64,000 bases of DNA from Parachitinimonas caeni (GCF_030129945.1 NZ_JARRAF010000017.1:1-64000); one strand, 5' to 3'; positions 40,757-48,505 are shown, numbered from the stretch's first letter. Numbers and translations: made by a program. Notes: generated by a model not told the origin, from the sequence alone.

Positions 40757-41233
40757 ATGTCCTCTGTAACCCGCATCAGCGCTCAATTGTTGGACACGGT
40801 GACCGCCGCCGCACAATCACTTCCACGCCGTCGGCGCAATCATAATTTTCATAATTCAGATTCGGCAATTTGCCACAGATTATTAAATGCTGTTGAGCCG
40901 GAGAGCTATGTCGCGCCCCATTGTCATCTCGATTCAACAAAAGATGAAATGATGGTTGTGTTGCGGGGCAGCATAGGCATCGTGATTTTCGATGCCGAAG
41001 GCGTTGTGATCGACACTGTAGTGTTGAGCCAAAATGGTCCGGTTTACGGGGTGGATCTCCCGCCGGGCACCATTCACAGCCTTGTGTCCTTAGAGTCGGG
41101 CTCGGTTATTCTGGAAGCCAAGGCTGGCCCCTACCTGCCGCTGTCGGATGAAGAAAAGATGCACTGGGCGCCCGCGGAGAATGCTCCGGGTTGGGAAGTC
41201 TACCGCGACCGGCTGATTGCTCTCTTCAAGTAG
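40757..41233 (+). CDS. cupin-fold protein (WbuC-like)
   Basis: 158-aa protein with a His-containing cupin motif APHCHLDSTKDEMMVVLRGS. The start at 40757 follows AAGGAGA. Confidence 0.5.
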   Translation: MSSVTRISAQLLDTVTAAAQSLPRRRRNHNFHNSDSAICHRLLNAVEPESYVAPHCHLDSTKDEMMVVLRGSIGIVIFDAEGVVIDTVVLSQNGPVYGVDLPPGTIHSLVSLESGSVILEAKAGPYLPLSDEEKMHWAPAENAPGWEVYRDRLIALFK

Positions 41234-41442
41234 GCCGATTATTTCATAAACCCATTGCGGGGCGGGATGGGCCAGATACCGGGCGTGCGTGGTACGCACA
41301 AACTTTGGACTGTCTACTGCCTCGGTGGCGCTGGTGTGGCGGACAAAATTTCACCCGTGAGAACGGAAAGCAGGCTCATTGTGGCCTGCTTTTTGTTTTT
41401 CAGCGTGAGCTACTCCAATAAGCTCCCGTATCCAGGGATACG

Positions 41443-42870
41443 CTATTTGACTTCACGAATCGTCACCAAAGCGGCGCCGAAGGCGTTTGAGCAGGGATTA
41501 GTGGCCGAGGTGTCGCTCTGACAGTGACTGGTCTGGCTGCCACTGGCCAGCGCCTGCAGGCTGCGGCTGGCGCTACGGCTGACGGCGAGAGCTGAAAACG
41601 GGCCGGAGGGGCGCATGCCCAAGCCGGAGAAGTCTCGCGGGGTATCCGTCACGATGGCGAGCAATTGGTTGCCGCCCGCTGGGCCCTGCGCCGTGATCTG
41701 CCAGCTTTCGCGGGGCAGTCGTAACGGCTGGCCGGCGGTGACGAAGTTGTCGCGGTCGATCTGATTCGGGAACAGCAGATCGAAGCTTTTACCGTCCGAA
41801 CCGACCATCAGCACATAGAGATAGCCCGACTGATTGCTGGTAACGGTGAAGTCGAGGCTATCTTCGCCGATTTTCAGCTCAGGTTTGGCTGGGGCGAGGC
41901 TGACGACGCGGCGGTCATCCCGACTATTGAATAGATCGCGTAGCGTGGCGCTGGCGGGGGCATCTCTGCTGCCCGTTTTGCCGGCGCCTTCGGGCAGGGC
42001 AAAGACCGAGCGGCTGTTGCCGGCCAGGGTGATGGTGGATGGCTTGATGTCTCGGGCGCCGGCGAGTTTTTGTTCCAGCTTGTTTTGCGCACACAGGCGC
42101 AGCTCATCAACACTGAGGCCGCCGCTCCGATCGGTATCAGCCCCCGCATTGATGCAGGCCAGCCAGGCGGAGGTGACCAGCCCGCCTTCCTTGGGATGGT
42201 CGAACGATACTTCATTGGCCTTGGCTGCTGCGATGTAAACGTAGTTGTTGCCACCGCTGCCCAAGGAACGACTGGCGACCCGCAGGTGTTCGCTCAGAAT
42301 GTTGACCGGGACCGAGCAGCTATCCTGTGCGCCGGCCCTGACGGCAAATTTGGGGCGTAGTCCTGCCAGATCGGCGCTGCGCTTGTTTACCGAGCGGGTG
42401 GTCACGCCGCCAGAGTGGCAGGCGTCAATCATCACAACCAACCGGCTGGCCTGCTCGCCAAGCCTTTTCAGGCGCTTTTCCAGTTCAAAGTCGAAAAACA
42501 GCAGGCCATCGGTGGCGACCAGTCCTTCCGCACAGCGTTCGTTGGGGTCTTGCACCAGGGCACGGCCACCGTGGCCCGAGTAATAGACGAAGACCTGATC
42601 ACCCTGACGGACGCGCTGTTCCAGTTCATCGAAAGCTTTGTTGATGCCGGAATAAGTCAGCTCGCTATCTTTGTAGAACCGCATATTCGCTTCGCGAATG
42701 CCCATGCGACGGCTGATTTCGCGTGCATTGTCGATATCGTGCCGCACACCGGGTAGTCCTGGCATATCGCTGGTGTATTGGCTGATGGTCAGGATCAGGG
42801 CGTGCGTTTCGGCAAGGGCGGGGCCCCAGCACAGGCTGGCGGCTAGGGTCAGACCCAGCAGGCTGCGCAT
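41443..42870 (-). CDS. secreted caspase-domain (peptidase C14) protein with C-terminal beta-rich domain
   Basis: Signal peptide MRSLLGLTLAASLCWGPALA. Catalytic His in YYSGHGG and Cys in IDACHSGG. The RBS GGAGG is 6 nt upstream. Confidence 0.75.
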   Translation of the reverse strand: MRSLLGLTLAASLCWGPALAETHALILTISQYTSDMPGLPGVRHDIDNAREISRRMGIREANMRFYKDSELTYSGINKAFDELEQRVRQGDQVFVYYSGHGGRALVQDPNERCAEGLVATDGLLFFDFELEKRLKRLGEQASRLVVMIDACHSGGVTTRSVNKRSADLAGLRPKFAVRAGAQDSCSVPVNILSEHLRVASRSLGSGGNNYVYIAAAKANEVSFDHPKEGGLVTSAWLACINAGADTDRSGGLSVDELRLCAQNKLEQKLAGARDIKPSTITLAGNSRSVFALPEGAGKTGSRDAPASATLRDLFNSRDDRRVVSLAPAKPELKIGEDSLDFTVTSNQSGYLYVLMVGSDGKSFDLLFPNQIDRDNFVTAGQPLRLPRESWQITAQGPAGGNQLLAIVTDTPRDFSGLGMRPSGPFSALAVSRSASRSLQALASGSQTSHCQSDTSATNPCSNAFGAALVTIREVK

Positions 42871-42871
42871 T

Positions 42872-43528
42872 TTATTTACCTCCTTCGCCGCCCATCTGAT
42901 CATCCATGCGCTTTTTCATGGCTTCGACGGTCTGGTTGGCTGGCTGCCGCTTGTGCATATCGGTCAGCAGTTTCTGCGCCTCCTGATATTGCTTGAGGCT
43001 GATCAGTTCGTTGAGAAAGTAGAGGTCGGGCAGCAGATCATCCGGCGCAGCTGACTGGCGCAGGCCGGCATAAGCCTCACGCGCCTTGGTCAGCTCGGAG
43101 TTCTCGCCGCCTCCTTGGCGAATGAACAGCACGCCGGAGAGTTGCTTGACCTCGCCGACTGTCGTGGGCGCCCGGTTGAGGGCCTGCTTCAGCAGGGGAG
43201 GCAACTGTTTGACTTCAGCGGGGGTGGCGCCGGCACTTCCCTTTGACTCCACTTCACCCACCTGCAGTTCGGAGGGGCCATTCCACGATTCCTGCCGGCC
43301 GGAATTTGACCAGGCGATCTGCAGGCTGGCCTTGCTTGCCAGTTTCACCCGATCGCCACTATGCAGTTGCATGAAGGCTTCAACAGGTTTGGCGCGGGCC
43401 TGCTTGCTGGTGTAGCTGACCTGACCTTCGACCTTGGTGACCAGGATGGTCACTCGCTCGGTAGCCAGGCTGCTGGCGGTCAGTAGCCAGAAGATGGCCA
43501 GCGCACAGGCGCGGTGTAATGACTTCAT
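42872..43528 (-). CDS. secreted hypothetical protein
   Basis: Signal peptide MKSLHRACALAIFWLLTASSLA. Tightly flanked by the cyclase and caspase genes. Confidence 0.55.
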   Translation of the reverse strand: MKSLHRACALAIFWLLTASSLATERVTILVTKVEGQVSYTSKQARAKPVEAFMQLHSGDRVKLASKASLQIAWSNSGRQESWNGPSELQVGEVESKGSAGATPAEVKQLPPLLKQALNRAPTTVGEVKQLSGVLFIRQGGGENSELTKAREAYAGLRQSAAPDDLLPDLYFLNELISLKQYQEAQKLLTDMHKRQPANQTVEAMKKRMDDQMGGEGGK

Positions 43529-45471
43529 GATGCTTCCTCTCTGATCCCGACGACTTCGAATACTTCGACTGCTTCTTCCCGTCCCTTAACCTGTAACGAG
43601 CGCTGGGCACCGGTAACGATGCCGCTGCCGGCAGCGCGGACGGTTGCCGCACTGGCGGCAACCGTGCAGCCCAGAACCTTGGTGAGCCCTTCCAGCCGGG
43701 AGGCGATGTTCACGGTATCGCCCACGGCGGTGTAGTCGGCTTTCTGGGTTGAGCCGATATTGCCCAGCACGGCAGTGCCGGTGTGAATGCCAATGCCGAT
43801 ACGGAACAGCGGCAGGTCATGCCGGGGAAAGCGTTCGTCCATCCACTGCTGGAACTCAATGGCGATCTCCCGCATCCGCAACGCAGCACGCAAGGCCCGG
43901 CGTGCGTGGTCGGGCAGGGGCAGCGGCGCCCCGAATTCAGCCATGACGGCATCGCCAATGAATTTATCCACGCTGCCGCCTTCTTTAAGAATAGGCTCGC
44001 AAACCCGTTCAAAGTAGGCGTTCAGCATTTCCACCACTTCATTCGGGGCAAGTTTTTCGGAAATAGTGGTGAAGTCCCGCAGATCGGCAAACAACACCGT
44101 CACTTCAGCGGCTTCGCCACCCAGATCGGGCATGCGGCCGCTCTCCAGGACGGCTTCGAGTACGGCGGGTGATACGTAGCGCCCCCATGCCTGGCGCGCC
44201 AGCGCACGGTCGCGGGCTTCCTGCGATAGCCGGGCCGCAAACGCCAGCAGCAGGGCGACAGCCAGACCCAGTTGCAGGCTGGCCAGCGGTAGCATCCAGT
44301 CGGCGAGGAAGGCTTGAAAGGCGGTCGAGGCGGCCACTGCCGATAGCGCGGCAAAGGCGATCAGGGCGGGGGTGGAGCGCAGCCGCCAGAACAGGGCGGT
44401 GCCAACCAGCAGGAAGCTGCCAAGCCAGGCCCAGCGCCAGTGGTCGGGCGCCGCTTCGTAACGACGGCCACTCAGGAGGGTTTCCACGGCATTAGCCAGG
44501 ATTTCGGCGCCCGCCATGAAGCTACCGTGCTGGATCACCCCCACGGCGTAGGGCGTCTGGTGCCAGTCGAACAGCGCGGTACTATCGGCGCCAATAATGA
44601 CCACCTTGCCGCGTAGCGCCAGAACCTGAGGATCTTGCAGAGCCCCAGGCGCCAGCAGGCGCGAAATGGAGACGCGGGGCACAGTATTCGGTGGTCCGTA
44701 AAAGGCGATCGGGAATGGCGGATCTCCCGGCAGATACTGGCGGCCACCAATATTCCAGCCAGCGGCGTCGGCTTTGAGGCCAGCAGCCCGGACCGCGAGC
44801 AACGCAGGGAGTGATAGGCGCGGCGAACCTTGGCGTAACTCGGGCCGTAGGTTGATGGGGGGGGCAAAGGGCATGCGGCGGATCAGGCCATCGCTATCAG
44901 GCGGTAGGTCGGCCAGGCCCACGGTCGATACCAGATCGGGGGCTGAGAGCAGCACTTCAGGTTGGGGGAGGCGGAACTGATCGTAGCCGGCATCAATCGC
45001 CGGCTGGGTTGTGGCTGCAAGGGCCACCTTGCCCGAGGCGACTTCTCGCCGGAAGTTCTGATCAAAACGGCGCGCAATGTCGGTGTTGGGCAAGTCCATC
45101 TTGGCCAGCCAGCGCTCGGGAGAGATTCCATACAGAATATCGAGGCCAATCGCCGAAGCACCCACCTGCCGCAATACCTGCGAGGCTTGGGCGACATAGG
45201 GGGACCAGAATACCAGCGGGTCATCCGGATATGCCGCCAGGCTCTGATCGTCGATCACCACCAGCACCACATGGCCGGGCGTGGCGCGCACTCCGGCAAG
45301 GCGGTGCCACAAATCACTGTAGAAGTGCTCAATCCGCTCCGTCGCATTGCTGCGATACAGCCCCTCGGCGGCCGTCAATGCTGCCAGCACGGTGGCGACC
45401 AGCGCCAATCGTCGCCGCAAGCGAAAACCGATGAAGGGCAGAAGGGGCATGGCGTCTGTACACCTGTTCAA
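43525..45471 (-). CDS. CHASE2 sensor-domain class III adenylate/guanylate cyclase
   Basis: N-terminal TM plus CHASE2 region and three C-terminal TM helices. Cyclase catalytic motifs VTVLFADLRDFT...FIGDAVMAEFG...GIGIHTG. Confidence 0.85.
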   Translation of the reverse strand: MNRCTDAMPLLPFIGFRLRRRLALVATVLAALTAAEGLYRSNATERIEHFYSDLWHRLAGVRATPGHVVLVVIDDQSLAAYPDDPLVFWSPYVAQASQVLRQVGASAIGLDILYGISPERWLAKMDLPNTDIARRFDQNFRREVASGKVALAATTQPAIDAGYDQFRLPQPEVLLSAPDLVSTVGLADLPPDSDGLIRRMPFAPPINLRPELRQGSPRLSLPALLAVRAAGLKADAAGWNIGGRQYLPGDPPFPIAFYGPPNTVPRVSISRLLAPGALQDPQVLALRGKVVIIGADSTALFDWHQTPYAVGVIQHGSFMAGAEILANAVETLLSGRRYEAAPDHWRWAWLGSFLLVGTALFWRLRSTPALIAFAALSAVAASTAFQAFLADWMLPLASLQLGLAVALLLAFAARLSQEARDRALARQAWGRYVSPAVLEAVLESGRMPDLGGEAAEVTVLFADLRDFTTISEKLAPNEVVEMLNAYFERVCEPILKEGGSVDKFIGDAVMAEFGAPLPLPDHARRALRAALRMREIAIEFQQWMDERFPRHDLPLFRIGIGIHTGTAVLGNIGSTQKADYTAVGDTVNIASRLEGLTKVLGCTVAASAATVRAAGSGIVTGAQRSLQVKGREEAVEVFEVVGIREEAS

Positions 45472-45527
45472 ATTCGCGGCGACTGCCGCTTGCGGCTGAG
45501 GGGGTGCTGAATGGGTGGGACGACTGG

Positions 45528-45587
45528 CTAGGTTCTGTTGACGTTTTGTTTTCGACTGGAAAGTAGAACGTCAACAGCGCCTCGTAC
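45528..45587. repeat. MITE-like repeat, short (60-bp) form
   Basis: CTAGGTTCTGTTGACGTTTTGTTTTCGACTGGAAAGTAGAACGTCAACAGCGCCTCG. Confidence 0.65.
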
Positions 45588-45769
45588 TGGTTTCAGTATC
45601 GTCAAGCCCATGGCCATTTGCCATTGCTGGCGGCGATGACCGATTAACGGTCGCGTCGGTGTGGTGGGCCTTGAGTCGGAATTGATCTTGCGGCAAGGCG
45701 AAAATCAATCAATTAACGTTCAAGGAGTCAGGCTCTGCCTGGGTCGAAAGCGCGGGCGTACCAACGAAC

Positions 45770-48505
45770 TTAGCGGGAAACCGCCTCCTGCAGGGTGCGC
45801 TGAATTCTTTCTCTCAGAATGTTGGCCTTGGCTTTCTCCCCTTGCGAGTCATCGGCGGTCTCTATGGCCGCCAATGCCTTATCGGCGGATGTCAGGAGTG
45901 CCTGGGCCTTGTCCCGATGTCCTTCGAGCAAGGCCAGACGGCCGAACTCGTATTGCAGGCGGGATTCCCACAAGTTGGAGCGCTGCGTTGCAAAGAGTGT
46001 CTTGGCACTCAAACCAGAGAGCAATTCGGCCACCCCCTGGATTTTCTTTTGATCGAGCCGGGCGCTTGCCAAATTGTATTGAAGGATTTGAATGGCAGGG
46101 CTGCTGGCCTCGATTTTGGGGCTGGCGAGCGCGAGTGCTGCAATCAGAATTTCCTCTGCCTTGGCTGGCTGTCCGACGCGTATGAAATTGGATGCTGCAT
46201 TGGCATAGATCACCGCAGAAAATTTAACCTTGCCGTTGGCTTTCTGATTCATTTCTGCAGCACGCAAAGCTGTATTGGCCGCAGCCTCAAACTGACCGGC
46301 ATTGCCGTACACCCGACTCAAGGTGTGGTAAGCGCGCGATAGGCTCAGATTATTATCACCAATTGCTTGTTGCATGCAGGCTATGGCGTCCTGGGCATCC
46401 TTGATGCTCTCGGTGCTTAGCCCTCGCACTGAGCGTATTTCGGCCATACTCCGCATGGCTTCACAGCTCAGGTAGTGCTTGCTCCCGAAACGGGCTTGAG
46501 CCTGATCCCATTGCATTTGCGCGATCTGCTGGGCCCCTGCCAGATTTCCGGTCATGCGCGTCGACTGCGCATTGGCGTGGATAATCTGGTGGCGCAGCAC
46601 CGGGTCGGCCTGCCCCAGACGATCCTGAATTGCCAGCGCATTTTCATAAGCTTGTATCGAGGCTTTCCATTGAAAGTTGCTGCCAAGAATACGGCCCCTT
46701 ACAAACCAATAACGAGCCTGGGTGTCGTCAGTGGCGAGGCGCTGCAGAAAGCCGGATTTCTCAACCAGATCAAGCTGTGCGGCAGCGTCGGCATTCTTGT
46801 CTTGATTGATGAGGCTACGTGCATAACTGATCCGGATTTGTGCAATGAGTGTCGGATCAAGCCGGGTGGCTTGATTGGCGGCAGCCAGCGCTTTCTGCGC
46901 CTCGGCGGTTGCTTCACCGAATTCATCCAGTTCGTTGAGGGCTGTCTGGGCGGCGGCATGGACGGTAGCGCGGATCTCGGGTGACAGCGGGTTTGGGCCT
47001 TGATCAATCTCGGCTGTGGCGGTTTTGAGTGCCTCGGCCAGGGTGATGCCGACGCGGCCCGAAACAGCCGGCCCGGCCTTGGCCACCAGATCACGGGTCA
47101 GAAACCGGTTCAGGGCGCTGATGTTCCGGTGTTCTGCGGCCAATGCCTGCTCACTGCGTTTGAGCGCTGAATAGGCATAGAGGCTCGTTGCCAGCCCCGC
47201 GATCAGTGTGACGACAACACTAATCACCCAAGGCCGACGGGCCCGGTTGCGGCGAATGGCTTCGCGATCGCGTGCAATCTGCTCGCGCTCTGCGATTTCC
47301 TGCTGGCGTTGCGCATGGCGTTGCGACAGGTTGGAAATCTCTTCCAGCAGGGCCTGGGCGCTACCGGTGCGTTGTTCGGGGTTGCCGTCGGTGGCGTGGG
47401 CGATGGTTTCGACCAGCAGGGCGTCATCGATCTCGCGTTCCCAGCCAGGGGCCAGCGCCCGCTTGAAATCGCCGATCAGCAGCTGATACAGCATCACGCC
47501 CAGCGCAAATACATCGCTACGTTCGGTCGATGTCTCCCCTCGCAGTACCTCAGGTGAGACATAGAGGGTCGTTCCGAATGCAGAGTCGAGTGCCAGTGTT
47601 TGTACCCCGGCAGGGTAGTGATCGGCCTGACCGGAATCGATCAGCCGTGCCGGGTCACTCAGGCGGCCACTGCCAAAGTCCACCAGCTTGAGCTGGGCAC
47701 CGCTGCCGGCTTGGGGGGTGATGAGCACATTGGCTGGTTTGAGGTCTTTATGCAGTACGCCAACAGAATGGGCGGCCGCCACGGTAGTGGCAATGCGGCA
47801 AAACAGGCTTAGCCTGTCGGCGCGGGGCAGCGATGCCAGGGCTTGATCTTTGGCGGACCATTCCACCAGATTGATGCCGCCATACTCGCTTTCCAGAAAA
47901 TAGGGCTGCTCGGTGAAGTTCCAGTCGAGAACACGCAGAAAATCGGCGCGCTCGCCCAGTTGATCATGCAGCAGGCACGACAGGCTGGCTTCGCGTTTTA
48001 GCGCCTGCAATCCCTCTGCGTTATGGCTGTATTTGAAGACACGCTCGATGCCGCGCTTGCGCTGCCGGGCGAGCCACACTTCCGCCCCCTGGCTATAGCC
48101 AAGTTGCTCGACCAGCTCGAATGCGTCGCGCAATGGCGCGGTTTTACCCGCTGCGAATGCCGTCGTGGTATCGGCTGGCCTCTCAATCGCTTGGCACACC
48201 ACTGGCGCAGTGATGCGATAGCCCAGTTTGGGTAGCGCTTCAATCAACCCGGCATGCGACTCCCCTAGTGTAGTGCGCAACCGGGTGATGGCGCTGGCCA
48301 GTACGTTCTCGCCAACATGCCGTCCATTCCAGATGTTTTCCTCGATTTCAGCCCGGGGGACCAATTCGCCGGCACGCGCCAGCAGCAGGCAGAGGATGCG
48401 CCAGGACTGTGGCTGGATTTCCACTTCCAGCCCGTTGATGGTCAAGGTGCCGGTGGATTCATCAAGAAAGCTGGCTCCAAACTGATATCGATTAGGCATA
48501 CGCAA
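45770..48505 (-). CDS. one-component membrane regulator: OmpR/CadC-type winged-helix, Ser/Thr protein kinase, TM helix and periplasmic TPR domain
   Basis: wHTH (WRILCLLLARAGELVPRAEIEENIW...LRTTLG), kinase subdomains (VFK, HKDLKPANVL, VDFGSG, SPE), a TM helix (WVISVVVTLIAGLATSLYAYSAL) and about 430 aa of TPR-like repeats. Confidence 0.8.
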   Translation of the reverse strand: MRMPNRYQFGASFLDESTGTLTINGLEVEIQPQSWRILCLLLARAGELVPRAEIEENIWNGRHVGENVLASAITRLRTTLGESHAGLIEALPKLGYRITAPVVCQAIERPADTTTAFAAGKTAPLRDAFELVEQLGYSQGAEVWLARQRKRGIERVFKYSHNAEGLQALKREASLSCLLHDQLGERADFLRVLDWNFTEQPYFLESEYGGINLVEWSAKDQALASLPRADRLSLFCRIATTVAAAHSVGVLHKDLKPANVLITPQAGSGAQLKLVDFGSGRLSDPARLIDSGQADHYPAGVQTLALDSAFGTTLYVSPEVLRGETSTERSDVFALGVMLYQLLIGDFKRALAPGWEREIDDALLVETIAHATDGNPEQRTGSAQALLEEISNLSQRHAQRQQEIAEREQIARDREAIRRNRARRPWVISVVVTLIAGLATSLYAYSALKRSEQALAAEHRNISALNRFLTRDLVAKAGPAVSGRVGITLAEALKTATAEIDQGPNPLSPEIRATVHAAAQTALNELDEFGEATAEAQKALAAANQATRLDPTLIAQIRISYARSLINQDKNADAAAQLDLVEKSGFLQRLATDDTQARYWFVRGRILGSNFQWKASIQAYENALAIQDRLGQADPVLRHQIIHANAQSTRMTGNLAGAQQIAQMQWDQAQARFGSKHYLSCEAMRSMAEIRSVRGLSTESIKDAQDAIACMQQAIGDNNLSLSRAYHTLSRVYGNAGQFEAAANTALRAAEMNQKANGKVKFSAVIYANAASNFIRVGQPAKAEEILIAALALASPKIEASSPAIQILQYNLASARLDQKKIQGVAELLSGLSAKTLFATQRSNLWESRLQYEFGRLALLEGHRDKAQALLTSADKALAAIETADDSQGEKAKANILRERIQRTLQEAVSR

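Follow-up and report, generated by a model that had tools for sequence, protein, structure and literature searches.

In a 64,000-nt stretch of the genome of Parachitinimonas caeni (GCF_030129945.1, NZ_JARRAF010000017.1:1-64000; the whole stretch is referred to below as the window), three packed minus-strand genes form one translationally coupled operon. They encode a membrane receptor that combines a CHASE2 sensor with a class III cyclase domain and is predicted to be an adenylate cyclase, a small protein designated here as the adaptor, and an orthocaspase carrying a C-terminal DUF4384 domain. Both the adaptor and the orthocaspase are probably exported. P. caeni is a soil bacterium (Betaproteobacteria, Chitinibacteraceae). 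The evidence consists of the order and coupling of the genes, the identities of the domains, their catalytic residues and folds, the conserved linkage of the genes in other genomes, and a remote FecR-like homology of the adaptor. The reading that we favour, at a probability of about 0.4 and with analogy to known systems as its guide, is outside-in signalling, in which the caspase would process the adaptor or another envelope partner and thereby alter the synthesis of cyclic AMP (cAMP).

Structure of the operon and its products

The three open reading frames (ORFs) occupy positions 43525–45450 (receptor cyclase, 641 aa), 42872–43528 (adaptor, 218 aa) and 41443–42870 (orthocaspase–DUF4384 protein, 475 aa), all on the minus strand. 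As read directly from the DNA, the TGA stop codon of the cyclase gene (43527–43525) overlaps the ATG of the middle gene (43528–43526), forming an ATGA overlap at 43525–43528. At the second junction (42868–42885), also read directly, the middle gene ends with the codons GGC GGC GAA GGA GGT AAA TAA; therefore, the Shine-Dalgarno sequence GAAGGAGG is located within the end of this gene, ahead of the caspase start, and the TAA (42874–42872) is followed by one base (A) and the ATG at 42870. The longest caspase ORF opens at 42903, and the ATG at 42870 is the likely start. The longest cyclase ORF opens with TTG at 45471; judged by its start context, an ATG in the same frame at 45450 (MPLLPF..., frame verified) is the likelier start. 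In related loci, the cyclase and adaptor genes likewise overlap or are only a few bases apart. The coupled three-gene operon proposed in an earlier reading of the DNA sequence (the original prediction) is thus borne out by both junctions.

According to the Pfam analysis, the first gene product contains a CHASE2 extracytoplasmic sensor domain (PF05226; 44398–45360; 118.9 bits against a cut-off of 26.3, E = 3.7e-34, 249 of 257 profile positions covered) and a class III catalytic domain (Guanylate_cyc, PF00211; 43570–44109; 81.3 bits against a cut-off of 21.9, E = 8.9e-23). One hydrophobic segment (residues 15–29) precedes CHASE2 and three (340–354, 362–376 and 392–406) follow it, so CHASE2 probably lies outside the membrane and the catalytic domain in the cytoplasm. 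The catalytic set is complete, as had been predicted, and includes the metal-binding Asp456 and Asp500, the specificity residues Lys496 and Thr574, Asn581 and Arg585 (numbering from the ATG at 45450). The nearest solved relatives of the domain are Cya2 (2W01) and IlaC (6FHT), together with CyaC (1WC1), and Asp456, Asp500, Asn581 and Arg585 align with their counterparts in all three. Lys496 aligns with a Glu of the guanylate cyclase Cya2 and with a Lys of the engineered adenylate cyclase 6FHT, and Thr574 aligns with a Thr of CyaC. These two positions are those which we take to be substrate-specifying, with Lys and Thr or Asp selecting ATP, and Glu and Gly or Cys selecting GTP. Because of Lys496 and Thr574, the protein is predicted to be a class IIIb adenylate cyclase with cAMP as its product. 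The original prediction had left the choice between adenylate and guanylate cyclase undecided; the assignment to the cyclases stands, and the two residues point to the adenylate type.

As for the middle gene product, no Pfam family was found for it even at E ≤ 10, and nothing above cut-off was found in NCBIfam. A word-indexed search returned 23 relatives, and an exhaustive profile search returned 948 clusters (50% identity) at E ≤ 1e-3, nearly all of them 200–250 aa long, with the match covering most of the protein. The adaptor therefore belongs to a large family of predicted exported proteins, with about 950 clusters at 50% identity, that is covered by no domain library. Its structure model (predicted local distance difference test, pLDDT, 81.7) shows a leader, a beta-sandwich at residues 28–108 (43205–43447) that bears the conserved SGRQExW and EVKQLP motifs, a disordered linker at 123–140, and a C-terminal TPR-like region of four helices at 142–213 (42890–43105). 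The sequence-profile search of PDB gave only weak matches to TPR or Fis1-like proteins. The six most conserved positions across the family are G35, G58, E80, W82, G84 and R137. Arg137 (codon 43118–43120) is invariant in two alignments (A1 and A4) and at least 90% conserved among 92 diverse family members, although it lies in the linker, where pLDDT is below 50; it is also kept in a divergent subfamily (loci L052 and L053) in which the SGRQE motif is lost. This near-invariant residue is a candidate protease site or docking residue.

A FecR domain had been among the expected matches, and the FecR label had to be dropped for the middle gene. None of the 92 diverse family members matches Pfam FecR (PF04773) at E ≤ 0.01, the P. 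caeni protein does not match it even at E ≤ 10, and the hhalign probability of homology with E. coli FecR is 0.2%. What remains is a remote N-terminal homology of about 70 residues. In the hhalign comparison with FecR-domain proteins whose genes immediately precede those of CHASE2 cyclases in Ruegeria and its relatives, a probability of 93.4% (E = 2.5e-7) was obtained over 68 columns only, corresponding to adaptor residues 18–95 and covering the segment just ahead of the Pfam FecR region and its first quarter. Judged by these profiles, the adaptor combines a truncated sandwich, remotely FecR-like, with TPR hairpins; its relationship to the FecR family is partial and does not amount to membership. 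The beta-sandwich has the same fold as the LapA-type retention module. The corresponding NCBIfam profile (retention_LapA, NF033682) gives the adaptor 22.1 bits against a cut-off of 50, and is the only recurrent NCBIfam match among the 92 members (6 of 92, all weak and below cut-off).

The third gene product contains a Peptidase C14 domain of the caspase-hemoglobinase fold (42076–42804, E = 8.7e-17) and a DUF4384 domain (PF14326; 41638–41877; 71.5 bits against a cut-off of 27, E = 6.1e-20), whose fold is a macroglobulin/Ig-like beta-sandwich. The beta-rich C-terminus noted earlier is thus DUF4384, and, apart from FecR, all of the domain searches proposed at that time (CHASE2, Guanylate_cyc, Peptidase_C14 and DUF4384) gave matches. 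The caspase motifs SGHGG and DACHSGG are present. The dyad residues His100 (42571–42573) and Cys151 (42418–42420), together with Asp45 and Asp149, are invariant in two alignments, one of 31 sequences and one of 34 homologues of about 50% identity; the intact His/Cys dyad of the original prediction is therefore also a conserved one. AlphaFold gives a confident, compact model of the protein (pLDDT 85.6; predicted template modelling score, pTM, 0.88). In this model, a low-confidence basic loop (residues 156–166) directly follows Cys151, and its resemblance to a processing linker hints at such a function. Orthocaspases cleave after basic residues (PMC6426788). By motif analogy with TbMCA2 and AtMC4 and with the same published data, Asp149 of the DxCHSG motif and Asp45 would form a metacaspase-type acidic S1 pocket, implying specificity for Arg or Lys.

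The export of the adaptor and the caspase was judged only by inspection, hydropathy and alignment, which agree with the signal peptides assigned to both proteins in the original prediction. Among the 34 caspase homologues, four cysteines are invariant, two more are at least 90% conserved, and all sequences have an N-terminal leader; the export of the caspase fits these six conserved cysteines and the leaders. The orthocaspases and metacaspases of known structure, namely AtMC4 (6w8r), AtMC9 (8a53) and GSU0716 of Geobacter (3bij), likewise have the His/Cys dyad and an acidic S1 pocket of DxCHSG and a second Asp. They differ from the P. caeni protein, which is probably exported, is fused to DUF4384, has six conserved cysteines and is genomically tied to a receptor cyclase. 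In addition, some Csx30 proteins, the substrates of the caspase-like Csx29 protease in type III-E CRISPR, have been described as having DUF4384 at their C-terminus (bioRxiv 10.1101/2022.08.17.504292); this is a second context joining DUF4384 to caspase-fold proteases.

Conservation of the gene neighbourhood

Loci encoding the adaptor were collected through the adaptor alignment (12 from genomes and 28 from metagenomes), and loci from exact-protein look-ups were added. They were reduced to 30 clusters at 90% identity, 25 of which had upstream sequence. The survey is biased to relatives from Rhodocyclales and Burkholderiales, found via one peptide pattern. The gene order of P. caeni is shared by Chitinimonas and by many genomes and metagenomes of Rhodocyclales and Burkholderiales. 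A CHASE2 cyclase gene lies directly upstream of the adaptor gene in 20 of the 25 independent loci, mostly with an overlap of a few bases (19 by scripted count, and L024, which was read separately). In the other five, two small genes (~188 and ~305 aa) precede the adaptor gene; where such an alternative layout had enough upstream sequence (L008 and L016), the cyclase gene was found ~6 kb upstream, and genes for an OmpA-like and a DUF4384 protein lie in the interval.

Downstream of the adaptor, the clusters with at least 4 kb of sequence (n = 14) contain a C14 gene in eight cases, a DUF4384 gene in seven, and either or both in 12. The two domains are encoded by separate genes in some clusters and are fused in P. 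caeni. In Rhodocyclales, the order is cyclase, adaptor, autotransporter-type barrel, alpha/beta hydrolase and C14, whereas in Dechloromonas the cyclase and adaptor are followed by a protein with PG_binding_1 and DUF4384 domains and by further genes. Rhodoferax has a convergent C14–DUF4384 gene, and Parachitinimonas and Chitinimonas share the minimal form, with C14 fused to DUF4384.

The reverse survey started from seven caspase–DUF4384 homologues on long contigs, and a CHASE2 cyclase was found within 10 kb in four of them. An adaptor or adaptor-like gene adjoins the cyclase in L018, L052 and L053, and locus L021 ends at the cyclase. Metacaspases occur in only 18% of prokaryotic genomes (PMC3501461), so the adjacency of caspase and cyclase is far beyond chance. 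A chance linkage is very unlikely, and the association of the genes, which the original prediction had made dependent on other genomes, is not random, although it is not obligate.

Several loci contain additional genes. In Dechloromonas-type loci (L003, 5855–11707; L013, L015, L040 and L047), the adaptor is followed by a protein of 532–561 aa with a faint CsgG match (E = 0.038), PG_binding_1 and DUF4384; conserved proteins of 200 and 301 aa of no known family and an OmpA-like protein are also encoded there. These loci also encode several secreted proteins of 100–115 aa, some with the common stretch "...QGVQIQGNT(D/N)I". The gene set looks like an envelope or fibre-assembly cluster. Locus L052 (4312–9875) encodes another CHASE2 protein (557 aa, no cyclase domain), an SH3_3–DUF4384 protein and a 992-aa TPR-CHAT protease, so that CHASE2, DUF4384 and a caspase-fold protease may be a more general triad. 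Farther along L052 (10001–18123) and in L053 (10001–18326), MlaD- and MlaE-like genes and a fragment resembling an ATPase are interspersed among the genes for caspase–DUF4384, for a DUF4384 protein, for the CHASE2 cyclase and for a longer adaptor-like protein that contains an Ig-like insert; this layout hints at a link to outer-membrane lipid transport. Two tandem adaptor paralogues follow the cyclase in L024 (7063–8591), where C14 and DUF4384 were not detected within 8 kb. Proteins of ~970–1000 aa combining a WD40 beta-propeller with C14 are encoded beside the module or the caspase–DUF4384 gene (L023, 13082–16075; L051, 11685–14594), and several Rhodocyclales loci contain two or three C14 paralogues. 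In Chitinimonas sp. BJYL2 (L001, 15999–16669), a TPR-CHAT protease gene, with no counterpart in the P. caeni window, was found ~6 kb downstream of the orthologous operon, past four unannotated genes for secreted proteins or lipoproteins.

The P. caeni window itself contains no homologues of the accessory envelope genes of the related clusters. Directly upstream of the operon, an ORF on the same strand (45770–48505) encodes a 911-aa protein with an N-terminal winged helix of OmpR/CadC type (Trans_reg_C), a Ser/Thr kinase, a hydrophobic segment and C-terminal TPRs, an unusual DNA-binding kinase in a single polypeptide. It was rejected as a fourth member of the operon on account of a 300-nt gap and the absence of a homologue from every related locus. 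No sigma-70-like promoter was found across 41100–45900, and there were no Rfam matches. A GC-rich hairpin on the minus strand at 41368–41391, ~52 nt past the caspase stop codon (fold z-score −2.0), is a weak candidate for a terminator because the consensus terminator scan did not flag it; the two terminator-like matches of that scan are both within coding sequence.

Possible mechanism and alternative explanations

According to the favoured outside-in reading, the inner-membrane receptor would expose CHASE2 to the periplasm and make cAMP through its class IIIb domain in the cytoplasm. The periplasmic adaptor would bind CHASE2 and set the activity of the cyclase, by analogy with the pairs of FecR-type proteins and CHASE2 sensors. 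A periplasmic metacaspase-type protease, held on its macroglobulin-like DUF4384 domain, would cleave after Arg or Lys. It would act on the input side by cutting the adaptor, most likely at Arg137 of the disordered linker, or another envelope partner, and an envelope proteolytic event would be converted into a change in cAMP. The near-universal translational coupling of the cyclase and adaptor genes suggests that the two proteins form a complex. The original prediction had coupled an extracytoplasmic signal and cyclic nucleotide production to the caspase. The caspase is unlikely to be a direct output of the cyclase, since cAMP would be made in the cytoplasm while the caspase is predicted to be exported, and for that reason the protease is more plausibly placed on the input side or in parallel. 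Nothing was found to support the suggested cell-fate or cell-death role.

The encoding of FecR-type proteins beside CHASE2 sensors is a known theme (PMC5192318, PMC9239204, PMC5498481). Examples are the BiofilmReg operon of Burkholderia and the PA4035/4036-type genes of P. aeruginosa (PMC5192318), as well as the cluster of CHASE2 cyclase, FecR, TPR and phosphodiesterase genes of Campylobacterota (PMC9239204); the Ruegeria and Shinella plasmid loci provide further pairs of a FecR-domain protein and a CHASE2 sensor. As in P. caeni, a transmembrane CHASE2 sensor is encoded beside an exported FecR-type protein, and TPR and outer-membrane barrel partners recur. In contrast to these pairs, the P. 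caeni adaptor is much shorter, is not seen by Pfam FecR, has its FecR-like part fused to TPR hairpins and is encoded downstream of the sensor, whereas the FecR genes lie upstream. The P. caeni module also adds a caspase–DUF4384 protease, which is unmentioned in the descriptions of those pairs. In the Shinella plasmid locus (L055, 102–11032), NHLP-type bacteriocin export genes come directly after the genes for a TPR and outer-membrane-barrel protein, a FecR-domain protein of 849 aa and a CHASE2 cyclase.

A further comparison is with the CyaD1/CyaD2/CyaK–NsrA–Clr pathway of Sinorhizobium meliloti (PMC5498481, PMC7529298, PMC13001267), whose CHASE2 receptor cyclases are also of class III and make cAMP. 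They are the only CHASE2 cyclases to have been studied, and respond to a protein signal that requires an outer-membrane beta-barrel (PMC13001267), and a gene for a periplasmic FecR-domain protein adjoins cyaD1; the Rhodocyclales versions of the present module similarly carry an autotransporter-type barrel. The pathway differs in its symbiosis context, in having no known protease, and in that its FecR neighbour is an output of Clr and not a proven co-sensor.

Several points weigh against the outside-in reading. Export, the binding of the adaptor to CHASE2, the cleavage and its site, the direction of the signal and the cAMP product are all inferred. The S. meliloti FecR-domain neighbour, SMc02177, is a cAMP–Clr target and is dispensable for signal perception (PMC5498481), which argues that such neighbours can be outputs and not inputs. 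No Crp-like gene, which would encode a cAMP receptor, is present in the 64-kb window. Three of the seven caspase–DUF4384 homologues of the reverse survey (L019, L020 and L051) have no CHASE2 cyclase within 7–10 kb, so the protease is not strictly dedicated to the cyclase. The Dechloromonas-type loci keep Arg137, yet no C14 gene, only a DUF4384 protein, was detected in the cluster. The conserved Arg137 could also be a binding residue and not a scissile site. One version, a "protease-activated receptor" in which a periplasmic Arg-specific orthocaspase cuts the adaptor after Arg137 and switches the CHASE2 adenylate cyclase on or off, is regarded as unlikely.

The strongest of the other explanations, though a doubtful one, treats the adaptor and caspase as periplasmic effectors that are co-produced with the cyclase or placed under cAMP–Crp feedback, the caspase remodelling surface or envelope proteins as the response. 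Together with SMc02178, SMc02177 offers a precedent, since both are encoded beside cyaD1, are Clr–cAMP targets and are dispensable for perception (PMC5498481). Possible substrates are also abundant in the related clusters, namely OmpA-like and PG_binding_1 proteins, the autotransporter-type barrel and MlaD/MlaE. However, a caspase encoded in one translationally coupled operon is not separately regulated by the product of the cyclase, and an exported enzyme would be out of the reach of cAMP. The tight and widely conserved coupling of cyclase and adaptor suggests a stoichiometric complex, and the lack of a Crp-like gene in the window counts against this explanation as well.

Envelope surveillance without cleavage of the adaptor appears unlikely too. 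Here, the caspase–DUF4384 protein would be a protease for the housekeeping or quality control of proteins that belong to the outer membrane or are associated with peptidoglycan, and the cyclase and adaptor would sense peptides or the state of the envelope. The family is large (at least 800 matches) and is sometimes found away from any cyclase; it recurs with OmpA-like proteins, barrels, PG-binding proteins and Mla-like genes, and DUF4384 is a macroglobulin-like binding domain. All this agrees with a surveillance role, but the high conservation of Arg137 in a disordered linker would be left unexplained.

An inside-out arrangement of the LapA–LapG–LapD type is improbable. In such a system, the cytoplasmic nucleotide state holds or releases a periplasmic cysteine protease, which cuts a retention-module-like protein. 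The likeness lies in a periplasmic cysteine protease encoded alongside a membrane protein of nucleotide second-messenger signalling. However, LapD is an inside-out receptor of cyclic di-GMP, whereas the P. caeni membrane protein carries a cyclase domain, predicted to produce cAMP, and not a nucleotide-binding receptor domain. The caspase is unrelated to LapG, a protease of the transglutaminase-like type. The Lap substrate is a giant adhesin threaded through LapE, whereas the adaptor, at 218 aa, is not the N-terminus of a giant RTX adhesin, and its score is far below the NCBIfam retention-module cut-off (22 against 50 bits). The retention module of MpIBP (PDB 5ix9) counts, with the Lap system, among the closest known relatives of such an arrangement. 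No gene for a LapE-like pore is present in the window, and the operon and its flanks contain no LapE, LapG or LapD partners.

A Pycsar-like role in anti-phage defence or abortive infection, with the cyclase making a nucleotide alarm and the caspase acting as the death effector, is the least probable explanation and was rejected on the specificity residues and the missing effector. In its favour, PycC profiles of PADLOC align with the cyclase domain (best E = 9e-27), there is a match to a generic "caspase" model at E = 2.5e-14, and several defence systems use caspase-like proteases as effectors (PMC8195603). However, the PycC matches span only the class III catalytic core common to both, the Lys/Thr residues are of the purine (ATP) type, the receptor has a CHASE2 ectodomain, the partners have no cyclic-nucleotide-binding domain and are predicted to be exported, where a cytoplasmic nucleotide cannot activate them, and the neighbouring genes are housekeeping and envelope genes and not a defence island.

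Novelty and biological significance

Every catalytic part of the module comes from a known family, and the pairing of a FecR-like accessory protein with CHASE2 is itself already known. The co-occurrence of a caspase fold and CHASE2 in one system also has precedents in the cyanobacterial caspase–CHASE2 fusions (PMC3501461) and in the EACC2–caspase–CHASE2 proteins (PMC8195603). In these fusions, a single polypeptide receives the external input through CHASE2 and delivers the output in the cytoplasm through its caspase, whereas in P. caeni the caspase is a separate protein, probably exported and so located, like CHASE2, outside the cytoplasm, and the cyclase provides the output. Three features appear to be new: a probably exported orthocaspase/DUF4384 component has been recruited in a conserved manner, the family of the adaptor is annotated by no library, and a structural resemblance to the LapA retention module is seen next to a predicted periplasmic cysteine protease. 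Literature searches on CHASE2/caspase/FecR, on DUF4384 and on orthocaspase/periplasm/adenylate cyclase found no description of the three-gene module.

CHASE2 is widespread in bacterial sensors, with no ligand defined, and its only known input is a plant protein signal to which S. meliloti responds. Orthocaspases, too, are abundant in bacteria, and almost none has a known substrate or a role beyond speculation about cell death. The P. caeni operon genetically ties a probably exported orthocaspase, catalytically intact as judged by its residues, to a CHASE2 cyclase and an adaptor in which a candidate cleavage site is obvious, and thus makes both the question of CHASE2 input and that of orthocaspase function testable in one small operon. 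If the "protease-activated receptor" version is true, it would provide the first defined input mechanism for CHASE2, a protein partner gated by proteolysis and not a small ligand, and a proteobacterial orthocaspase would for the first time have a physiological substrate and a role.

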